DNA of 64,000 nt from an uncultured virus (IMG/VR IMGVR_UViG_3300024303_004490). Its lineage: Duplodnaviria; Heunggongvirae; Uroviricota; Caudoviricetes. This document shows positions 3,356-20,778 of the stretch, piece after piece. Numbering within the stretch: position 1 is the stretch's first letter; every line of letters starts with the position of its first letter. The notes under the pieces were generated by a model that was given only the letters and a program-made list of their open reading frames with translations, was not told the origin of the DNA and searched no databases. A program made the position numbers and the translations under genes. The stretch is from the IMG/VR virus record IMGVR_UViG_3300024303_004490, one strand, 5' to 3'.

Positions 3356-4659
3356 CTGTGTGCTCCTTTTCTCATCAATTCAGCTTGTCTTGCTCTTTCT
3401 TTCATTTCAGGTGTCCAACTGTCTTTTCGTGAAATAGGGACCCAGGTTTTCGTGACCGCATCTCCGTTTTTTAAGAAAAAAACTACTTTATAGTTATTTT
3501 CAATTTTAATTTGCTTAATCTGTGCCTTGATGTATTCTTCGTCGAAAAAATCTATACCCAGGATATCCAAGGTTAAGGTTTTCAGCGTCTCTTCCGGGAT
3601 AGCCTTTGAAGCACAGATGCTTTTTCCTTTGGTGTTATAAGTGTTGCAAATATAAACTACTCTTTTGCTCGTCACTTTTCTTCTATAGGTGTCACCGCAG
3701 TTGCCACAAACAAGCAATCCCGAAAAAGTATAAAGGTTCTTTTTTCTTCCCTTTGGTGAATGCTTGTCAGCTCTCCGTATTAATTCTGCTTGAACCAGGT
3801 CAAATTCTTCCTGGCTGACAATAGCCGGATGACTGTTTTCAACATAATATTGCTGCTTTTCACCATTGTTATATACTTTTTTCTTTGTGATGTGGTTTTC
3901 TATGTATGTTGTCTGCAACATCAAATTTCCGGTATAAGAAAGGTTTTGAAGAATGCACCTTACGCTTGATTTACCCCAGGGTTTCTCATGTCTTGTTTTT
4001 GCTCCTTGTAAATTCAGCGTTTGGGCTATAGCTTCAAGCCCCATACCATCAAGGAAAGAAGTGAAAATAAACCTTACTGTTTCAGCTTCTTTTGGTTCAA
4101 TTTCAAATTCACCATTTTTACATCTGTAGCCGAGCATTGTGCAGTTCCAGGGCAGTCCTTTTTCAAAATTCTGCTTCACCCTCCATTTTTGGTTTTGGCT
4201 CACAGAAAGACTCTCTTCCTGGGCAAACGATGCAAGGATGGTGAGGAGCAATTCTCCAGCACCACTCATTGTATGAATGTTCTGTTCTTCAAAAAACACA
4301 TCAACACCGAGTTCTTTTAGCTCTCGAACCGTCTGCAATAAGGTCAGCGTATTGCGAGCAAATCGTGATATGGACTTGGTTACTATCATATCAATTTTTC
4401 CTTTTCGGCAGTCATCAATCATCCTCTGAAACCCTTCACGATTAACCTTTGTACCGCTGATTGCTTCATCGGTATAAATTCCGGCAAAAGACCATTCGGG
4501 GTTGGACTGTATGAAACTGTTATAATAACTGATTTGTGCTGCCAAAGAATGAAGCATTGCATCTTTACCAGAAGACACCCTGGTATACGCAGCAACTTTC
4601 TTTAGCCTTGCAATGCTCAATGTATCAAACGCTACCCGTTCAATTACTCTTTCCATCAA
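3352..4659 (-). CDS. second large serine recombinase
   Basis: YTRVSSG; TKSISRFARN; CGNCG Zn ribbon; ATGA overlap with the downstream recombinase. Confidence 0.93.
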   Translation of the reverse strand: MMERVIERVAFDTLSIARLKKVAAYTRVSSGKDAMLHSLAAQISYYNSFIQSNPEWSFAGIYTDEAISGTKVNREGFQRMIDDCRKGKIDMIVTKSISRFARNTLTLLQTVRELKELGVDVFFEEQNIHTMSGAGELLLTILASFAQEESLSVSQNQKWRVKQNFEKGLPWNCTMLGYRCKNGEFEIEPKEAETVRFIFTSFLDGMGLEAIAQTLNLQGAKTRHEKPWGKSSVRCILQNLSYTGNLMLQTTYIENHITKKKVYNNGEKQQYYVENSHPAIVSQEEFDLVQAELIRRADKHSPKGRKKNLYTFSGLLVCGNCGDTYRRKVTSKRVVYICNTYNTKGKSICASKAIPEETLKTLTLDILGIDFFDEEYIKAQIKQIKIENNYKVVFFLKNGDAVTKTWVPISRKDSWTPEMKERARQAELMRKGAHR

Positions 4660-4682
4660 AAATCACCTCCTTGGTATGACAC

Positions 4683-4713
4683 ATATTACCTCTGTTATCT
4701 ATTATTATCCAGT
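4683..4713 (-). promoter_or_regulatory. promoter motif ACTGGATA-N17-TAATAT upstream of the recombinases
   Basis: same hexamers and spacing as copies at 29455, 30524, 32377 and 33470. Confidence 0.7.
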
Positions 4714-4716
4714 AAA

Positions 4717-4875
4717 TTACAAACATAAAGTACACGAATTTAAGCCGTATTTTTTGAGCATAATTGTATCAATTTTGTCGTACTCTTCTTCGTTTATTAT
4801 GCCTTTTTCAAGCATAGATTTAGCCAAAGACATCGTAACAATGTACGCATTTTTCTTCTCATTCAGATCTAACAT
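4717..4875 (-). CDS. 52-aa SHOCT-like protein (not in ORF track)
   Basis: MLDLNEKK...MLEKGIINEEEYDKID; GAAAGGGTG RBS; overlaps the end of the upstream gene. Confidence 0.65.
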   Translation of the reverse strand: MLDLNEKKNAYIVTMSLAKSMLEKGIINEEEYDKIDTIMLKKYGLNSCTLCL

Positions 4876-5248
4876 CGTTTTCACCCTTTCTTATGTGGTC
4901 AAGGTAGCAGTCACGGCTGCAATATTTTTGTGAGGGACGTTTAATCGGCAAAAAACTCTGTCCGCAATGTTCACAGAACTTAGGTTTAATAAATCGATGC
5001 TTTATTATTTTTCTATTTCGATTCCACCATTTTGTTTTGCACTCCTCTGAACAGTATTTTTTCGACTTTCTGCCTGGTGTTTGAACGATAGGTTCACCAC
5101 AATATCTGCATTTGCCACTGCCGACCTTATTTCGGGTACAATATGATTTTATGGTTCCGGTAGGAAGATTAAGCTCAATTGCGATTGCTTTATAGCCTTT
5201 ACCCTTGGAGCGTAAATCCCATATCTTTTTTTCTTCAAGTTCGGTCAT
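4859..5248 (-). CDS. HTH plus Cys-rich Zn-finger protein (possible recombination directionality or regulatory factor)
   Basis: KGYKAIAIELNLPTGTIKSY HTH; CxxC and YCSxxC repeats. Confidence 0.7.
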   Translation of the reverse strand: MTELEEKKIWDLRSKGKGYKAIAIELNLPTGTIKSYCTRNKVGSGKCRYCGEPIVQTPGRKSKKYCSEECKTKWWNRNRKIIKHRFIKPKFCEHCGQSFLPIKRPSQKYCSRDCYLDHIRKGENDVRSE

Positions 5249-5261
5249 AACAGCACCTCCT

Positions 5262-5326
5262 TCACCATATGGAGAAAAAGAGAGTTTTTGTCAGGGTGTT
5301 TTATAGCTGTTTTCAGAATTTTTTTA
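5262..5326 (-). promoter_or_regulatory. repeat copy A of a putative phage-sigma promoter
   Basis: ungapped near-identity to 48550-48614. Confidence 0.7.
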
Positions 5327-5339
5327 TAAAAATGGGTAA

Positions 5340-5380
5340 AAAAATATACCCATCGAGGTTTTTACACCTTAATGGGTATC
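5340..5380 (-). terminator. terminator after the moron
   Basis: ATACCCAT...ATGGGTAT stem with a T tract on the minus strand. Confidence 0.6.
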
Positions 5381-5393
5381 CGAATCGGTATTA

Positions 5394-5552
5394 TCAGAAC
5401 AATTTCCCGACAATCCATAAAATACATATAATAGCAACTATCCAAACTAAAAGGTTCGCATTCTCACCACTACCATTTCCACCGCTTTTATTACTGCCTC
5501 CGTTATTGGAAGATGTCATCTTAAAAGCATAAAAATCGTTTAGATCAGGCAT
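5394..5552 (-). CDS. 52-aa single-TM membrane peptide coupled to the upstream moron gene
   Basis: ATG overlaps the end of 5545..7497 with a GAGG RBS; Gly/Asn linker then LLVWIVAIICILWIVGKLF. Confidence 0.6.
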   Translation of the reverse strand: MPDLNDFYAFKMTSSNNGGSNKSGGNGSGENANLLVWIVAIICILWIVGKLF

Positions 5553-7497
5553 TGGTTTCCTCTGTGCAATCTTCAACCATCGCTTCAAGAATTGTTTCAC
5601 CCGAAGGTAAGGCGAAGGGTTCTCTCTCACTTATAACGGAGTCAAAGTAAGGGGTAAGAAAAACACGGATGGTTTCTTCTTGTTTCTCTGCTTTTAATAT
5701 TTTACCAAACAACGGCTTGAATTCTTTTTGTGGAATTTCATCGAGCTTTTCGATGAGCTTATCCATTTCAGTGGCATCGAGCAAATATTCACCAATTAAG
5801 CACGATACTACTGCATTGAAAAGTCTGCCGATTATTTCAGCATCATCTTCTCGTAGCGCATCGCCCACGAGGTCTATGGCTTTCGAGCTTACCATACCAC
5901 CAACAAAACCACCAACGATTCCGACTGCTGTTCCTACACCGGGAGCAACAGCTGTTCCGGCTGCCCCCGCAACTTTGGCGGCAACAACCCCGGCGGCTAA
6001 AGCACCACCAGCTCCACCTGCGATAGAGCCAATAAGTACAGACATATTTTTGGCATATTGCGCCACAGAAATTTTTCTTGAAGCAACCTTATATGTTTCA
6101 GGAATTGAAAAAACGGCAAAAGAAAGAGCCGAGGTTACAGCATTGCTTCGAAGAATTTTTGCTAAATGTTTTGATGCGGCAATACCATAAATTGCACTTT
6201 TACCGGACAGCGCCCTTATGCCATTTACGATAGTAGCTGATGCCTGGAAACCTAACTTTTGAACAACAAACTGACTTGGGGCCATTAATGCGTTGGCAAG
6301 TCCCGTTCTTGCAATCTGCGAAACAACCATATGTTGAACGAAAGAAATACCGAACACTTGAAGACCGGCAGAAACACCTGCCTTAACAGCCTCCTTAATA
6401 TCCCCGGTTCTGCGCCAGGTAAGAAAAACTGTAGCAACGAAGGTTATACCAAAAGCACAGCTACAAATAACGGCTCCGGTTGCAGCATCATAAGCAATAG
6501 ATTCAACCGTGCCAGGCTTTGTGAGATTTACAGCCTGTTTATATGTTAATCGTCCTTTGCGAACAATCTTTTTTGCATCAGCAGGGTCAGTAACACCTGG
6601 AACCTTTCCTTGCTTGATTTTCATTTCAAACCTATTAAGGACAGCCTCGTATTGGTCTTTGGGAACTTCAAGCTGCATAGGCTTATTACCATTCATATAA
6701 CGATACATTCCTGTTTCGCTACTGAAACAAGCCTCGCAAGAGCCTGTTGCTGATTTGTAGTATTTTGTCTGTATAAAAGCTCTGTCTACCCAACGGTCAG
6801 CACCATCTTTTGCATTATCTCTACCTATAACAAAAGCCTCATGCCCCAACATTTTATCCATTATTGTAATTGCTTCTTCCGCCATTTCACCATGTCCGGC
6901 AGGAGAATTGATAGCAGACTTCTGTTCAACAAAAACTGCTGAATCTGCTGATTGCCACGCAGCGACATCAAGAGGTACAACTTTAGCAAGTAATTCTTCG
7001 ATGTCTCGGTCTTCCATAAGGAAATCAAAAGCGTCGGGCTCATCGGTTGCTTTGCTTGATTCGGCTAAAGATTTACATCCATTTATAAAATGTTCTGTAC
7101 ATTGGGGTTCAACCATCAAGGCTCTGTTTTCTTCAGCGTCATCACTAACGAACCAAGATGGCTCAAAATCCTCCCAACGATAGTAGAAAAGGTGCGATTT
7201 TGCTTTTTCCTTTTTACCATCTTTGTTTTTTACCTTTTTGGCTATAACATCAACATTGGTTTTTATGAAAACGCCCTCATCGGTGCAGACTATACCACTT
7301 GGGCGCAAATCAAACTCTGCATCTGCCCACAATATCTGTTGCTCTCTTGGAATGGGAAAAATCTCTTTTATTTTTGACTTTTTTCCTTTGTTAAGTTCAA
7401 CGGGTGATTTACCAAGGGCATCAACAACTATTTGAGCCATTGGGTGTAACTCTGCAGAAATTTCTGTTGCATTGTCAGGAGTTTCTTTCGTAGCCAT
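5545..7497 (-). CDS. moron: YeeR-like protein with putative nuclease-like (E..D..QxK) domain and hydrophobic glycine-zipper C-terminus
   Basis: GHGEMAE..GADRWV..IQTKYY..MQLEVPKDQY..GKVPGVTDP matches my recollection of E. coli CP4-44 YeeR-family sequence; has its own promoter and terminator. Confidence 0.6.
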   Translation of the reverse strand: MATKETPDNATEISAELHPMAQIVVDALGKSPVELNKGKKSKIKEIFPIPREQQILWADAEFDLRPSGIVCTDEGVFIKTNVDVIAKKVKNKDGKKEKAKSHLFYYRWEDFEPSWFVSDDAEENRALMVEPQCTEHFINGCKSLAESSKATDEPDAFDFLMEDRDIEELLAKVVPLDVAAWQSADSAVFVEQKSAINSPAGHGEMAEEAITIMDKMLGHEAFVIGRDNAKDGADRWVDRAFIQTKYYKSATGSCEACFSSETGMYRYMNGNKPMQLEVPKDQYEAVLNRFEMKIKQGKVPGVTDPADAKKIVRKGRLTYKQAVNLTKPGTVESIAYDAATGAVICSCAFGITFVATVFLTWRRTGDIKEAVKAGVSAGLQVFGISFVQHMVVSQIARTGLANALMAPSQFVVQKLGFQASATIVNGIRALSGKSAIYGIAASKHLAKILRSNAVTSALSFAVFSIPETYKVASRKISVAQYAKNMSVLIGSIAGGAGGALAAGVVAAKVAGAAGTAVAPGVGTAVGIVGGFVGGMVSSKAIDLVGDALREDDAEIIGRLFNAVVSCLIGEYLLDATEMDKLIEKLDEIPQKEFKPLFGKILKAEKQEETIRVFLTPYFDSVISEREPFALPSGETILEAMVEDCTEETNA

Positions 7498-9594: not shown

Positions 9595-12105
9595 TCAATT
9601 CACACCAAATACTCTTGATATGTAACCATCAGAACTTCGTGTTGAAATTGTAACTGTTCCGGTTGTACCCGAATAAGACAGCGTAAATGCTACATAATTC
9701 ACCTCATCGGCAAATTGATATTTTAGCCCCGATGTTGTAATCATAGATTTCGGAGTTATCATAGTGCAAACCGCAGAGCCATCTTTCGGTCGCCCCATGA
9801 TGATGTATGCCTTGTGACTACCATAAGTAAAAGTAGCGGACCCCTCCGTAAGCGTTCCTTTATACAAACTCGTACAAGCAAGGCCGAGGTTGCTTCGTGC
9901 ATCTGCCGCCGATGTCGCACCTGTACCGCCTTTACCCAAAGGAATGGTAGCTCCACCCGAATGATAAACTTGGTAGCGTGTTCCGGGATGGGTCTGGTGT
10001 TCAACGTTCGGAGCATAGTATAATGTACCAGAAGCAGAATAAAGTCTGTCCCAGGTTGTTGCACTTCTGTAAAAGTTTATACCTTCACCTTGAGAGTCTA
10101 CAGCATCTTTGAAATATAAGCCGTTAATATTTATGATATCAGAGTTCTGCATATCTATGCCGTAAGCATCATCTACCCAATACTGACCTCCCGTTACTTT
10201 TATAATTTTAGGGGCTATGGTTTGTCCATTTATTATGTTAGCAATAGCATTTGCAACTGTTGTAGCCCCTGTACCGCCTTTCGCAATAGGAACCGCAGAG
10301 GATAATGATGAAGGTGCAACAGAACCGGAAAAAGAAGTTGCTGTAACCGCACCGGATATTTTTGTATCACCCACAACGTGGAGAGCTGCAGTGGGATTTG
10401 GGGTATTGATACCTACTTTTTGTTTTCTCAAGGCTACAAGAGGTGTACCTTGCGGAACAACATAATAAAGATCAAGCGAGGACGAGGAGCCTAAACTATC
10501 TCGTATTTGTATGTGAAAGTCATAAGAGCTTCCCGCATCGAGAGAACAAAGCTCAAGATTTGAAAATGAGAAAGACGAACCACTCTTGGTAACCGATGAA
10601 AGAATGCTCACATATGAGCCATAGCTACTTGCATTGGTTTTCTTGTACCTATACCTTACATAGGTTAAACTATTTTTCTGCGTACTGCTTACGGTCACGG
10701 GGGAAATTGTACCGCTGAAAGTAAGTTGCATTTCGGCTTCAATTTCATTGGTTCGTCTTAATGATAAAGATGAAACTTTCGGCTTTGCATAAGCAATAAC
10801 CGTAATATCCATACTTTTACTTACCGTGTAACCTCTTGAGTCGGTCGCTGTTACAACGACACTTAAAGTACCGGATTTTGAAATAGCACCAACGGTTAAA
10901 GCAGCACCTGTTGTATTCGATTTCGTCACTCCGTTACAAGTAGCAGAATATTTTACAATGCTTGCTCCGTTTTTTGCTGTAGCGGTAGCCGGGGTTACTT
11001 GTAAAGTAGAATAACCTTGTATAAAAAGTTGGTTATTTCCCGTAACTCCTGTGGTAGTTGTGTTCGTATCAGCCACTGTAAAGGCCCCTATCGTGGGTGA
11101 GGAATTACCCGATGAAGTTTGAACAGTAGCTGTTTTTGACGATGCCGAACCAATCTGTGTTGAGCCGTTCAATGTTGTAAGCACGAATGTTCCCGTGAAA
11201 GATTTGATGCTCGCCATCGCATTGAGAAGGGTTGTTCTTTGTGCAGAGGTCAAGGTTATCGTATTATCCGTTGTTCCCTTTGTAAGGGTAATACCGGTAA
11301 TTGTAAGATAAGTTGTGCTGCCGTTTTTAATAGCCAAGGTGTGGCTATATGACGCTTCATAAACCGTTGTTTTCAGAGTTATTTTTACTGTGGATGCATC
11401 AGCCGTTACCGTACCGACCGAAGATAAAACCGAACCGCCGAGGGTTTTGGCAGTTGTTGCTGACGAAGTACCATACACATGGTTACTTTGTTTTCTTGCT
11501 TTTACCTTTACCGAATAAGAAGTGTTCGGCGTAAGACCGGAAAGAGATATACTTGCACTCGTTCCGGCAGTCGTTGAAAACTGCGTCCAAGAAGAACCTC
11601 CGTTTGTGCTGTACTGCCATATATCGGCTTTAGCGGATGATGTGGCTGAAATCTTAAAGCCGTTAGCTGTTATTGAACCTACAGTACATTTAATGGTGGG
11701 TGCAGTACGGTCGATTGCATCGAGGCTTATTGTTGCCGATGCGGTAATTGTACCTATTGAAGTTCCGGCATAAGTACCATCGAAACGCCAAGAGGCAGAC
11801 AGTTTGACCCCAGTCTTTGTACCATCGCTGTTATGATTTACTCGTACTTTTTTTGTTTTTAACAGCTTCGAATGAGCCGTTGATGAATCATCCTCCGAAA
11901 CGGCGGGACTTGAGAACGTTTCGCTTGTTCCGTTAATTGAAACCGTGCAGTCATCTCTTGCACCTACATAAAGGGATGCATATTTCAGATAGACCTTTAA
12001 GGTAACATCAGAATAGTTTCCCGTAACGCTTTGTGTGGCTGACCAGGTACAGTACAAGCCAAGATATGTAGACGGATATTTTGAAAAATTACCACTCAAT
12101 GCCAT
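9595..12105 (-). CDS. receptor-binding / tail fibre protein with FN3 domain
   Basis: Ser/Thr-rich beta protein; LSGLTPNTSYSVKVKA FN3 motif; KVGINTPNPTAALHVVG; two KGGTGAT motifs. Confidence 0.75.
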   Translation of the reverse strand: MALSGNFSKYPSTYLGLYCTWSATQSVTGNYSDVTLKVYLKYASLYVGARDDCTVSINGTSETFSSPAVSEDDSSTAHSKLLKTKKVRVNHNSDGTKTGVKLSASWRFDGTYAGTSIGTITASATISLDAIDRTAPTIKCTVGSITANGFKISATSSAKADIWQYSTNGGSSWTQFSTTAGTSASISLSGLTPNTSYSVKVKARKQSNHVYGTSSATTAKTLGGSVLSSVGTVTADASTVKITLKTTVYEASYSHTLAIKNGSTTYLTITGITLTKGTTDNTITLTSAQRTTLLNAMASIKSFTGTFVLTTLNGSTQIGSASSKTATVQTSSGNSSPTIGAFTVADTNTTTTGVTGNNQLFIQGYSTLQVTPATATAKNGASIVKYSATCNGVTKSNTTGAALTVGAISKSGTLSVVVTATDSRGYTVSKSMDITVIAYAKPKVSSLSLRRTNEIEAEMQLTFSGTISPVTVSSTQKNSLTYVRYRYKKTNASSYGSYVSILSSVTKSGSSFSFSNLELCSLDAGSSYDFHIQIRDSLGSSSSLDLYYVVPQGTPLVALRKQKVGINTPNPTAALHVVGDTKISGAVTATSFSGSVAPSSLSSAVPIAKGGTGATTVANAIANIINGQTIAPKIIKVTGGQYWVDDAYGIDMQNSDIININGLYFKDAVDSQGEGINFYRSATTWDRLYSASGTLYYAPNVEHQTHPGTRYQVYHSGGATIPLGKGGTGATSAADARSNLGLACTSLYKGTLTEGSATFTYGSHKAYIIMGRPKDGSAVCTMITPKSMITTSGLKYQFADEVNYVAFTLSYSGTTGTVTISTRSSDGYISRVFGVN

Positions 12106-17900: not shown

Positions 17901-18722
17901 CTAATCAGTAATTTTTACGGCAACAACTATGCCTTGTCCCGTAGTTGCCGGGTTTGGAGTAATGGCAACGGAAACTATAGTAGGCGGAGTTGTGTCCGGT
18001 ATCTTTTCAAATGTTGCTGTGTATGATTTTGATGTTGTGAAAGCGTTTATAAGATTTGCATCTACACTAAAAGTGCGCGATGCATTTGTGTTGCCATCAG
18101 ACCAGGAAACGAATCTGTACCCGGCAGAGGGTGTAGCTTTTATCGTATAAGAAGTTCCGAATTTATATGTCCCTGCTCCGCTGACAGTGCCACCGCCATT
18201 TGAGTTCACGCTGACAACACAAGACGGTTCCGTATAGTCGATGGCAAAGGATGAGCTTTTCCAATACCACTTTCGGGTGATGGTTGCCGAAAACCATATA
18301 CACAAGTTTTTTGTTCCTGAATAAACTCCGGCTTTTGATGTCATTGAATTAAACATATCCGTCAAACGTTTTGACGTACCATCAATAACACTGTTTTTGT
18401 TAATCGCAGCAGTTAAGTAATCTTTACCCGTTTGAAACAAAGGATCTATTTTGTAGCCACCGGCTGAAAAATATGAATCCGTTTCTGCTTCAAGGTTGTA
18501 ACGACAGTCACCTTTGGTAGAAAGACTGGTTTTAAATTGTAATGTAACTCTTACATCATCAATTCTTGAATATGCTGGAATGTACATCTGCATCTGACTA
18601 ACAGAGGATGAGGCGTTTGTTACAAGTAAACAGTGGGTCATTTTAAGACCGGTGCCCTCTGTATTATCACTACAGAAAGACACAGAACGTGTAGGCATAT
18701 TAATCACGCTCCTTAACAACAA
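17901..18722 (-). CDS. Ig/InlB-B-repeat protein (candidate fibre tip)
   Basis: GGTVSGAG..ATPSAGYRFVSWSDG..ATF repeat; C-terminal partial Ig segment. Confidence 0.65.
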   Translation of the reverse strand: MLLRSVINMPTRSVSFCSDNTEGTGLKMTHCLLVTNASSSVSQMQMYIPAYSRIDDVRVTLQFKTSLSTKGDCRYNLEAETDSYFSAGGYKIDPLFQTGKDYLTAAINKNSVIDGTSKRLTDMFNSMTSKAGVYSGTKNLCIWFSATITRKWYWKSSSFAIDYTEPSCVVSVNSNGGGTVSGAGTYKFGTSYTIKATPSAGYRFVSWSDGNTNASRTFSVDANLINAFTTSKSYTATFEKIPDTTPPTIVSVAITPNPATTGQGIVVAVKITD

Positions 18723-18996
18723 TATCTATATATGCTTTCAACTTTTCAGGTGGAATTTCAACATTCACCACGAGATGATATAAGCCTTTATGCGAGGGGG
18801 ATAAAAATACACGAAGGCATCTGCCGTCAATTTGGCAGACACCCTCGCTTTCAATTGATTCAGTTTTATGCTCAATCAGTTTATATTTTGCATCAGTGAT
18901 AACAATCGTTTCATCAGCATCTTTGCTGCAAACCATAAAGTCGATATACTTTTCTTCACCGAGCAAAAATGTGCGTGATTCAATCACAGTTACCAC
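18700..18996 (-). CDS. 98-aa beta-rich hypothetical protein
   Basis: overlapping starts and stops with neighbours; GLYHLVVNVE Ig-like F strand. Confidence 0.55.
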   Translation of the reverse strand: MVTVIESRTFLLGEEKYIDFMVCSKDADETIVITDAKYKLIEHKTESIESEGVCQIDGRCLRVFLSPSHKGLYHLVVNVEIPPEKLKAYIDIVVKERD

Positions 18997-19279
18997 CGTC
19001 CTTTATAATAACAAGTTCGAGTTTTTGAGGTAGGAGCTGAATTTTATATTTGCTTTCTTTTAAACAAAGATGAACCCTGCCTTTAAGCATATATAGAATT
19101 CCCGTCCAATAAGCAAAATAGCCCTCACTGTCGAGGGCGTAAATCTCTGTAGCGTATTGACCATCAGTCATATCGGGAGGTACGGTGCATTCCCACTCAT
19201 TACCTCCCGTTGGTGTAAACTCAAGGTCAAAGTTATCAGCCTTGCCGTAAACTCGAACTATCTGTCTGTCAGTTCTCAT
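18980..19279 (-). CDS. 99-aa partial Ig-like domain protein
   Basis: WECTVPPDMTDGQYATEIYALDSEG resembles bacterial Ig-like strands E-G. Confidence 0.65.
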   Translation of the reverse strand: MRTDRQIVRVYGKADNFDLEFTPTGGNEWECTVPPDMTDGQYATEIYALDSEGYFAYWTGILYMLKGRVHLCLKESKYKIQLLPQKLELVIIKDGGNCD

Positions 19280-20189
19280 CGACTACTACCGAAATGGTAT
19301 AAGTCTTACCTGCATCGGCAGGATTAGGCTCGATGACAACGGAACGGATAACGGGAGCGTTGGTTTTTACTGTAACAGTCCTTGTAACAGTTGTAGTCTT
19401 GCCGGCAGAGTCTGTTGCGGTAACTTTGATTTCGTTAACGCCTTCATCAAGGGTTATATCCTTGGTAAACGAACCATCACCGCTTACAGTAACCGTACCT
19501 TGGTCCTTTGTACCTACAGAAATCTTAACCGTTACAGGTGTTGAAATACTGTCGGAGGTTGTACCGGAAACAGTGATAGTTTTCTTATTGGTGATTGAAC
19601 CCTGGGTAGGACTTGTAACATTAAGAGAAGGAGCAACTGTGTCAACTGTAAACGAAACGGATTTTGTTACTGCGGCGTTACCATCGTTATCCGATACATC
19701 GATTGATATGTTGTTTTCTCCATCGGGAAGAACGGATGAAGGTGTGTAGGTGCAGTTGTATCCACCCGTGACAGGACTTGAGGAAATCTTCGATACATCG
19801 ACTTTTGCACCGTTAACTTTAAGCACAAGGCTTGAAAGATTAATACCGGAGAAGCCTGATGTCTGTGATACATTATCAAGAATAGTAAATGCAATTGCGG
19901 GTTTGCCATCCGTATTAAGAGCACCATCTGTAGGTGAAATAATACTGATAACAGGAACAACTTTCTCTTTAACAACAAGACGAAGGCTCGAACCGAGGGT
20001 AGAATGGTTACTGTCTGCTGTCGCTGTGTTTCCGGCATCATCAGTAGCCGAAACCGACACAGGATAATAGCCGCCATCAAGATTAAACGATGAACCCTGG
20101 GGAGCATTGAGCGTTGCTTCATAAGCACCCGTTGAAGAGTTATATGTCAAAGTATATGTTTGACCATTTATGGTTGTTGTTACTTGCAT
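19269..20189 (-). CDS. tandem bacterial Ig-like domain protein (candidate fibre shaft)
   Basis: repeated ATDxAG and DxxAP..SP motifs. Confidence 0.8.
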   Translation of the reverse strand: MQVTTTINGQTYTLTYNSSTGAYEATLNAPQGSSFNLDGGYYPVSVSATDDAGNTATADSNHSTLGSSLRLVVKEKVVPVISIISPTDGALNTDGKPAIAFTILDNVSQTSGFSGINLSSLVLKVNGAKVDVSKISSSPVTGGYNCTYTPSSVLPDGENNISIDVSDNDGNAAVTKSVSFTVDTVAPSLNVTSPTQGSITNKKTITVSGTTSDSISTPVTVKISVGTKDQGTVTVSGDGSFTKDITLDEGVNEIKVTATDSAGKTTTVTRTVTVKTNAPVIRSVVIEPNPADAGKTYTISVVVDEN

Positions 20190-20206: not shown

Positions 20207-20410
20207 TTAGATTCCGTCGGGGATAATATCATCAATGAAATTTTCCCTTTTCGGTTTGGATATGCCTGTGAATTGTTTGTGGCACTCCCACAGGTCAAGG
20301 AGTAATCCGAAAGGCATCAGCATGGTTTCATCCATTGTAAGATTGAGCTGTGCCATTCCGTAATAAAGAAGTCGAGTAAACAACTCTTCGTCACTTACTC
20401 GACCACTGCG
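20207..20410 (-). CDS. -1 frameshift extension of the tail assembly chaperone (gpGT-like)
   Basis: open -1 frame KRSGRVSDEELFTRLLYYGMAQL...DDIIPDGI reached from A AAA AAC at 20410-20416. Confidence 0.75.
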   Translation of the reverse strand, partial: RSGRVSDEELFTRLLYYGMAQLNLTMDETMLMPFGLLLDLWECHKQFTGISKPKRENFIDDIIPDGI

Positions 20411-20778
20411 TTTTTTGGCTCGTTTTCGCTTTCGATATTACGCTTCGTTCCTTTATACAGAGCCTCTGTAATTGCTGTCTTGTATTCGGCAAATTCAAAG
20501 GGTGTGGTGAGGATTTCAACCTCTTCTTCCGTTAAGAGAGGTTTTGGGGTTTCCTTATTCTTAAGATTGAAAATAAGGATAGACTGATTTGCGAGAAGAG
20601 TAACAAGCCACACAATTTCGGCTATTGCCATTTCAAAGTTTTCACTTTTCATCAGCTTATCACCGAGATTTTCAAGACCGCCGTAACGACTTGCTATTTC
20701 CTTGGTGGCTCTTGTCGAAAGCACAAGTTCGTACTCTTCACCACCGATGGTGATTTTAGCACTGCGTTCGTCAATCAT
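20395..20778 (-). CDS. tail assembly chaperone (gpG-like)
   Basis: follows the major tail gene and ends PKNAVVE with a slippery site. Confidence 0.8.
   Translation of the reverse strand: MIDERSAKITIGGEEYELVLSTRATKEIASRYGGLENLGDKLMKSENFEMAIAEIVWLVTLLANQSILIFNLKNKETPKPLLTEEEVEILTTPFEFAEYKTAITEALYKGTKRNIESENEPKNAVVE

Follow-up and report, generated by a model that had tools for sequence, protein, structure and literature searches.

The stretch of DNA analysed here, referred to as the window, comprises 64,000 nucleotides (nt) from an uncultured virus of the class Caudoviricetes (IMG/VR record IMGVR_UViG_3300024303_004490). Its tail operon contains a cassette of four tightly packed minus-strand genes, encoding proteins of 306, 99, 95–98 and 265–273 amino acids (aa), which are called p306, p99, p98 and p273 below (p265 when the last is counted from its probable start). 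The cassette is bordered upstream by the tail chaperone G/GT and downstream by the tape measure gene. A matching record is available from an Oscillospirales phage of human faeces (PV036458.1), which agrees at 100% across the cassette. An earlier interpretation of this DNA, made without database searches (the sequence-only reading), had placed four overlapping genes between chaperone and tape measure, and the open reading frames (ORFs) together with matches to phrog_2115 and phrog_58 confirm this placement.

Gene layout of the cassette

On the minus strand, the genes run in the order major tail protein (phrog_88), chaperone G, the four cassette genes, tape measure and distal tail genes (Table 1). 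The 205-nt space after chaperone G is occupied by the T part of the G/GT pair, which is open in the −1 frame to position 20210. The pair is canonical: the slippery sequence AAAAAAC stands close to where G ends, and the −1 extension of 76 codons stops 20 nt before the cassette. The borders are narrow, and gaps of 20 nt to GT and 11 nt to the tape measure gene leave the cassette no space for its own promoter or terminator; its transcription here must be shared with the tail genes. Successive cassette ORFs overlap by 11, 17 and 23 nt, each lying in the next +1 frame, and start codons and ribosome-binding sites are present for the cassette genes. The p273 gene most likely starts at the internal ATG, since AAGGAG stands 9 nt upstream of it and homologues begin there, and the p98 gene may start at its internal GTG. 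The placement given by the sequence-only reading thus stands, with three revisions: the space after the chaperone is not empty, and the start of p273 and perhaps that of p98 lie further in.

Table 1. Coordinates of the cassette genes, their domains and the bordering genes (HMM, hidden Markov model; AF2, AlphaFold2; Ig, immunoglobulin)
Feature	Position	Strand	Basis and remarks
p306, proposed rod subunit	20189-19269	minus	ORF, 306 aa
p306 N-socket (residues 1-76)	20189-19962	minus	own-domain HMM mapping
p306 whole Ig domain D2	19958-19635	minus	Pfam
p306 whole Ig domain D3	19634-19359	minus	Pfam; NCBIfam Ca_tandemer
p306 C-plug (residues 278-306)	19358-19272	minus	conservation of termini; AF2 of fused homologue
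p99, proposed base subunit	19279-18980	minus	ORF, 99 aa
p99 socket (residues 5-68)	19267-19076	minus	Pfam Big_3_4, E 7e-11
p99 C-terminal beta tail, ~30 aa	18983-19075	minus	often ends in Cys/His in the family
p98	18996-18700	minus	ORF, 98 aa; probable start GTG 18987, giving 95 aa
p273, proposed tip subunit	18722-17901	minus	ORF, 273 aa; probable start ATG 18698, giving 265 aa
Jelly-roll domain of p273	18698-18225	minus	AF2
InlB B-repeat of p273	18218-18000	minus	Pfam Flg_new_2
C-terminal plug of p273	17996-17904	minus	plug HMM
Tail assembly chaperone G	20778-20395	minus	phrog_2115, E 1.4e-28
T extension of GT, −1 frame	20210-20437	minus	frame translation and sequence; slippery AAAAAAC at 20416-20410
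Tape measure protein	17889-15277	minus	phrog_58, E 3e-77

Half-domains at the protein termini

In what follows, a socket denotes strands C–G of an Ig-like fold placed at the N-terminus of a protein, and a plug denotes an A–B beta-hairpin. p306 is matched by Pfam Glucodextran_B (86 bits) and Big_13 (61 bits; gathering cut-off 27 each), and D3 (residues 179–265) marginally reaches NCBIfam Ca_tandemer NF033510 (50.8 bits, cut-off 50). Residues 4–60, at the N-terminus, align only to positions 45–100 of the 108 in an HMM of the protein's own D2. p99 likewise matches part of a profile, its residues 8–67 falling on positions 3–61 of the 106 in Pfam Big_3_4 (42.4 bits, cut-off 27.3). Both the p306 and the p99 N-terminal HMM, when placed on giant tandem-Ig proteins, fall on one and the same stretch of ~55 residues in each ~90-residue repeat, so that both N-termini represent strands C–G without A–B. 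A sequence search of the PDB returned only generic bacterial Ig-like (BIg) domains for p306 and p99, and nothing for p98. The third half-domain lies in p273, whose C-terminus is detected by an HMM built from the final 32 residues of the 306-aa family (independent E-value, iE, 5e-5; second run 3.5e-7). These results bear out what had been read from the letters, namely that p306 carries two whole Ig repeats between the back part of a repeat and the front strands of another, that p99 has a back segment only, and that p273 ends in a front segment homologous to that of p306.

This half-domain anatomy is strictly conserved. Among 7998 proteins scored, 3306 are relatives of p306 at E 1e-5 or better. 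In the best 120 homologues, from which the plug and socket HMMs were themselves built, length is 295–316 aa in 119, all 120 end 0–3 positions past the plug model, and 118 start no more than 3 positions from the socket model (the others being one truncated protein and one with a plug fused to its N-terminus). For p99, 216 representative relatives were collected; the best 150 comprise 142 short socket-first proteins and 8 giant repeat proteins, and in all 142 short ones the socket match begins within the first 10 residues. Such fixed termini are far beyond chance.

The assignment of the plug to strands A and B comes from structure modelling rather than from sequence, because the D3 HMM gives no significant match to the plug (iE 0.16). 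A natural fusion of plug and socket in cis exists in locus L004, whose 351-aa rod homologue was modelled by AF2 with a mean predicted local distance difference test (pLDDT) score of 91.5 and a predicted template modelling score of 0.75. In this model, strand A spans residues 6–15 and strand B residues 24–34; a low-confidence linker of 22 residues follows, and then strands C, C', E, F and G, an order identical to that of D3. The N-terminal hairpin itself has a pLDDT of 93–94. Two solved single Ig-like domains superpose on residues 2–134 of the model, 2c4x with 91 residues aligned (1.6 Å, Z 11.0) and the PKD domain of 1l0q with 84 (2.1 Å). The hairpin is thus modelled as part of the sandwich, because the superposed residues exceed the 78 that the socket alone holds. 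The fused form is therefore predicted to be a complete Ig-like domain to which the plug would supply strands A and B. Against the four-repeat adhesin rod 6xi3, residues 6–351 of the same model align over 289 positions (root-mean-square deviation 7.1 Å, Z 9.2), and the rod is predicted to be extended in shape. Taken together with linkers of the DTxAP type, this alignment suggests that the C-plug would point away from the N-socket of its own chain.

It might be supposed that the four ORFs belong to a single longer Ig-repeat gene, either read through by programmed frameshifting or broken up by mutation, as their succession in +1 frames with short overlaps and the abutting of domain halves at the p306/p99 junction would allow. 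We consider this very improbable. The split is kept in relatives at 50–55% identity with differing frame shifts and spacings: p99 is in the +1 frame relative to p306 in the window and in L005 and in the −1 frame in L003, L004 and L018, and the junction takes the form of an overlap, an ATGA or an 11-nt gap. Differences of this kind fit neither a conserved frameshift nor decay and mark real gene borders, and recoding and pseudogene formation were ruled out on these grounds. Moreover, no fusion of a 306-like protein with p99 occurs among the best 150 of the 216 representative p99 relatives, the genes have their own start codons and ribosome-binding sites, and the plug of p273 precedes the tape measure gene and not a socket.

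Census of loci and proposed assembly

The cassette was followed through 100 loci, forming 30 clusters at 90% identity, which were scanned with our own HMMs over 5–6 kb on each side of the rod gene. Nearly half (47 of 100) share the layout of the window, with a socket–plug rod, a p99 socket, p98 and an extra plug. In 21 loci, all of one cluster, the extra plug is fused in cis to the N-terminus of the rod protein; 17 have no second plug by HMM, and the remaining 15 show other or truncated layouts. Seven of the 17 HMM-negative loci were read by eye, and all seven have a plug-like ORF after p98. So has L107, where it is a near-identical copy of an HMM-detected microprotein, and in L039 the plug after p98 is the C-terminus of a 324-aa p273-like protein. 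A second plug is thus present in the loci examined, HMM-detected in most and recognised by eye in the others. Among extra-plug genes, the HMM picked out 27 distinct ones, which encode microproteins of 50–85 aa with the plug at the N-terminus, and p273 of the window is the only HMM-detected case of a large protein ending in a plug. No locus has two rod genes. The gene order is kept as well, with 306-like, 99-like and 98-like genes following one another in relatives at ~54% identity. The three classes that had been named (donor-only for p273, donor and acceptor for p306, acceptor-only for p99) are likewise kept, in anatomy and roles, across ~30 sequence clusters.

Gene adjacency offers a guide to which plug may enter which socket. 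The C-plug of the rod is always followed by a p99 socket gene, and a plug gene stands directly upstream of the socket-first gene in L003, in L098, L100 and L112 and in the Flavonifractor phage Chenonceau, and is fused to it in L004. These arrangements (the fusion beside the N-socket being confined to one cluster) favour the insertion of the cap plug into the N-socket of the rod. In Chenonceau (L197, ON453904.1; 4824-6188), the gene of a 53-aa plug microprotein ends 3 nt before that of a socket–Ig–Ig protein, which has a probable GTG start at 4989 and no plug at its end. This phage is a prophage of F. plautii from OMM12 mice and can be induced (PMC10197239). Some plug microproteins also share a C-terminal motif, SGE[VI]..GEV, with phrog_18725 or phrog_18725-like proteins in loci of tail-fibre type (L197 4824-4985 and 5034-6188; L098 4805-4969; L020 6849-7436).

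As regards the proximal end, sockets are fused to a phrog_18725 domain adjoining distal tail genes in L019, L020 and L077, and in Chenonceau the rod, judged by eye, seems to run directly into a domain of the phrog_18725 type. Together with plugs carried on distal-looking domains, these fusions suggest the order anchor, then rod, then tip. The p99 family, whose C-terminal tail is variable, has Cys in the last 14 residues in 113 of 142 members (P0121-P0270) and C-x0-3-H in 47 of 142; a tail with such an end hints at a metal site or a disulphide at the proximal end. p98 is a small all-beta protein kept after p99 in most loci. It has no match in Pfam, PDB, NCBIfam or PADLOC, and its neighbours in the ESM Atlas are small phage Ig-like proteins. 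The role of anchor formerly proposed for it is not supported, as it matches no family. In PADLOC, none of the four cassette proteins has a match.

At the other end, p273 matches Pfam Flg_new_2 at residues 169–241, and AF2 models the tip protein (pLDDT 83.5) as a jelly roll followed by an InlB B-repeat. Structural neighbours of the tip domain in the ESM Atlas are C1q-like, Mtd_N and collagen fibre clusters at TM scores of 0.53–0.62, to be taken as leads only. A glycan-binding tip is possible. The C-terminus of the p273 family is swapped, being either a plug or repeats of the KIYVGT type, and elsewhere the plug is found on other tip-like domains or as a bare microprotein; this fits the variable tip that had been anticipated. 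A further example is the fourth cassette gene of vir215, a 205-aa protein with a plug at the N-terminus of a 170-aa domain.

The cassette is a self-contained mobile unit, as it is missing from the same place in most relatives of the operon and sits at other sites elsewhere. Among 69 relatives that share the same chaperone and tape measure, the junction between GT and the tape measure gene is without insert in 60 and carries other cargo of 0.86–1.78 kb in 9; none of the 80 loci examined carries this cassette. In other genomes it precedes the terminase, follows a head gene or stands among tail fibre genes, and it comes after the distal tail genes in L003, L019, L020, Chenonceau and vir215. A locus search with the p306 alignment located it in at least 445 viral contigs. 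A side case is vir215 (Caudoviricetes sp., NC_092586.1, L198), where positions 4986-7208 hold the same cassette with proteins of 314, 126, 93 and 205 aa; the record itself assigns Methanomassiliicoccales as host. The junction between GT and the tape measure gene is a cargo hotspot in relatives of the window's tail operon (L126, L130, L141 and L153), where the inserts include a 427-aa ATPase-like ORF, collagen-like fibre ORFs and a 298-aa ORF with what we take to be a Fic-like motif. In L004, positions 4272-5747, upstream of the fused cassette, hold one ORF of 165 aa and one of 324 aa with predicted membrane segments, which by eye look like an accessory toxin–antitoxin-like pair. In the window, the gene at 9595-12105 (minus strand), downstream of a Tal-like gene, encodes a distal tail protein of 836 aa in which beta-rich modules are repeated; this is probably the main receptor-binding fibre.

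We propose that the cassette encodes an accessory Ig-like rod whose subunits would be joined non-covalently through two split Ig-like domains, each join consisting of the A–B hairpin plug of one chain and the C–G socket at the N-terminus of the next. The C-terminal plug of p265 would fill the N-socket of p306, the C-terminal plug of p306 would fill the socket of p99, and the tail of p99, perhaps with p98, would make up the proximal end, by which the rod is held on the virion. A single defined chain of ~6 beta-sandwich domains with a possible glycan-binding tip would result, made together with the tail genes and serving weak, reversible adhesion to the host envelope or to gut glycans. For this chain as a whole (tip of 265 aa, rod of 306 aa, base of 99 aa perhaps with the 98-aa protein, linked in trans through fold complementation and exposed on the virion), we see about as much reason for belief as for disbelief. 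Trans complementation, the pairing of plugs with sockets, attachment to the virion and the adhesive role are all inferred. A covalent isopeptide link between plug and socket was also considered and set aside, as no Lys is conserved in the alignment of either partner.

A complex prediction provides some indication for one of the two joins. For residues 185–306 of p306 together with p99, the interface score ipSAE was 0.37 (runs 0.43, 0.33 and 0.37), the best control reaching 0.01; the runs share at least 71% of their contacts, and the partner pLDDT is at least 55. In benchmarking, 116 of 157 solved complexes passed the ipSAE mark, as did 2 of 215 mismatched pairs; at 0.60 or under, those that passed were only 18 of the 157 together with both of these mismatches. 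The prediction used our own alignments, so that these counts apply only roughly. The two parts of a split domain may also reach the mark through their likeness to solved folds. Multimer modelling had been suggested along with the original idea, and for the 306 and 99 pair it gives a score above the controls but a weak one; the prediction lends slight support to the C-plug of p306 joining p99, and to trans complementation more generally. Mirror-tree analysis of 23 loci did not discriminate between the possible pairings: the Spearman coefficient was 0.30 (partial 0.14) for the C-plug against the p99 socket, and 0.57 (partial 0.26) for the C-plug against the N-socket, which however lie within one protein.

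Several observations weigh against the proposed chain. By the standard of the tool itself, the complex prediction counts as weak. The pairing has been drawn from adjacency, one fusion and elimination, and the fusion shows only that its parts belong to the same complex. C-plugs and microprotein plugs look alike, and L019 and L077 have a second socket of the N-socket class (44–57% identical to the rod's own) that is likely the partner of the C-plug, so that plugs may be promiscuous; in L077 there are three sockets for two plug genes. The p99 tail holds 2–3 further strands and could fill its own socket in cis. The jelly roll resembles carbohydrate-binding modules and phage receptor-binding domains at Z 6–8 only (maximum 8.4), which is common. 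Finally, relatives also carry non-structural cargo at the junction of GT with the tape measure gene, and position alone is therefore no proof of a role in the virion or tail.

Some of these points would suit an open-ended polymer instead, in which 306-aa units are joined head to tail, the C-plug of one entering the N-socket of the next, with p265 or a microprotein as cap and p99 as base. The cap-to-rod ratio would then determine how long the fibre grows, and a donor-strand logic would have evolved independently in the cytoplasm, with neither chaperone nor usher. p306 alone among the subunits combines a socket with a plug, its C-plug closely resembles the cap plugs in sequence, the socket likeness in L019 and L077 means that class specificity is no bar to self-joining, and an extended rod, as predicted, suits linear growth. 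We nevertheless regard such a polymer, with the length control and independent origin that it entails, as unlikely. In the fused cluster, the N-socket is filled in cis while p99 and p98 are kept, from which it follows that one rod unit is enough and a 1:1:1 chain suffices; the repeating shaft of the sequence-only reading is thus not required. The overlapping, coupled genes suggest similar amounts of the proteins rather than a major shaft subunit, and the lack of any locus with two rod genes among the 100 points the same way.

Likewise doubtful, in our judgement, is the explanation that there is no complementation between chains at all, the four proteins being separate Ig-like decoration or fibre parts whose ends are self-sufficient or satisfied within the chain, for instance by the p99 tail filling its own socket or by the C-hairpin packing on D3. 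Such an explanation would account for the extra C-terminal strands of p99, the weak complex score, the near-zero correlation of the distance matrices of C-plug and p99 socket after control, and the pLDDT of 93–94 that the C-plug of the fused homologue attains with no partner in the model. On the other hand, a sandwich without two of its seven strands should be unstable alone, the plug-only microproteins have no other evident use, the fused form models as one complete domain, and the termini of 120 and 142 relatives fall within 0–3 positions of the model ends.

Relation to known systems

If the halves of the defined chain do join in trans, they would constitute a natural non-covalent plug-and-socket connector made from a split Ig fold, in use among a very large group of phages of gut Clostridia, as judged by the numbers of protein relatives and viral contigs given above. 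Such a connector would explain how tip domains are exchanged without touching the rest of the fibre, and would give the conserved microproteins a role as caps. It would also offer a handle on the adhesion to host or mucus of phages that infect strictly anaerobic gut bacteria, and the plug–socket pair could serve as a part for protein engineering. A related form is carried by Flavonifractor plautii prophages of the OMM12 mouse consortium (Chenonceau and Castelnaud), which are inducible and would be a suitable model. In the full-text literature searched, which leaves subscription journals outside, we found no description of split Ig domains or of strand complementation in phage fibres, nor does a paper on the Heliusvirales report any; the sequence-only reading likewise knew of no such description.

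Chaperone-usher pili are built from incomplete Ig-like sandwiches, each completed by a segment of the neighbouring subunit, and comprise donor-only, donor-plus-acceptor and acceptor-only subunits. The proposed chain would share both the completion of a split Ig sandwich by a neighbour and the three subunit classes. The parts exchanged are different: chaperone-usher subunits miss the C-terminal G strand, whereas the sockets of the cassette keep strands C–G and miss the N-terminal A–B hairpin. The donor of the pili is a single strand on an N-terminal extension; here it would be a two-strand hairpin, C-terminal in p306 and p273 and N-terminal in the microproteins. Neither the four proteins nor their neighbours match chaperone or usher genes in Pfam, PHROG or NCBIfam, and the N-termini of the cassette proteins, by eye, lead directly into the first beta strand. 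The site of assembly would be the cytoplasm of a Gram-positive host, and a polymer is not required. The pilus analogy drawn by the sequence-only reading therefore survives as functional logic, but not in the strands concerned, A–B being missing and not G, nor in the assembly machinery.

In type V pili (FimA/Mfa1 of Bacteroidia), one subunit donates its C-terminal strands to its neighbour, after a lipoprotein precursor has lost its N-terminal strand by proteolysis. The C-terminal position of the donor would be alike in the cassette, where it is probably a hairpin, whereas no sequence relation was found and the setting is a phage operon; assembly here would presumably involve neither a lipoprotein precursor nor proteolytic priming.

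Closer to home, Ig-like domains are reportedly present on tailed phages, including Hoc, the C-terminus of lambda gpV and SPP1 gp17.1*, as Fraser et al. are said to have set out in 2006. Like these decorations, the cassette brings Big-type domains into a structural operon as dispensable-looking cargo with a presumed role in weak adhesion. Unlike them, being whole domains fused to a structural protein, sometimes by frameshift, its domains are split between separate genes. The Ig-like adhesins of gut phages (PMC13370021) similarly have Big-type Ig-like domains, but whole and fused to a structural protein. In sequence and fold, the best matches of D2 and D3 are the Ca2+-stabilised tandem BIg rods of SiiE (2yn3), Lap (6xi3) and MpIBP (4p99), with which p306 shares DTxAP-style linkers and a predicted extended shape. 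However, those giant adhesins are single secreted chains of thousands of residues, while p306 has 306 and its end domains are cut at the B–C loop.

Adaptor-based tail fibres and spikes, such as the branched tailspikes of G7C and CBA120, dock interchangeable distal modules through a dedicated connector. The swapping of distal modules is alike in the cassette, where the connector would be half an Ig fold instead of a docking domain. Taken together, assembly of the cassette proteins would be of the strand-complementation kind, though the cassette is not a member of the pilus families.

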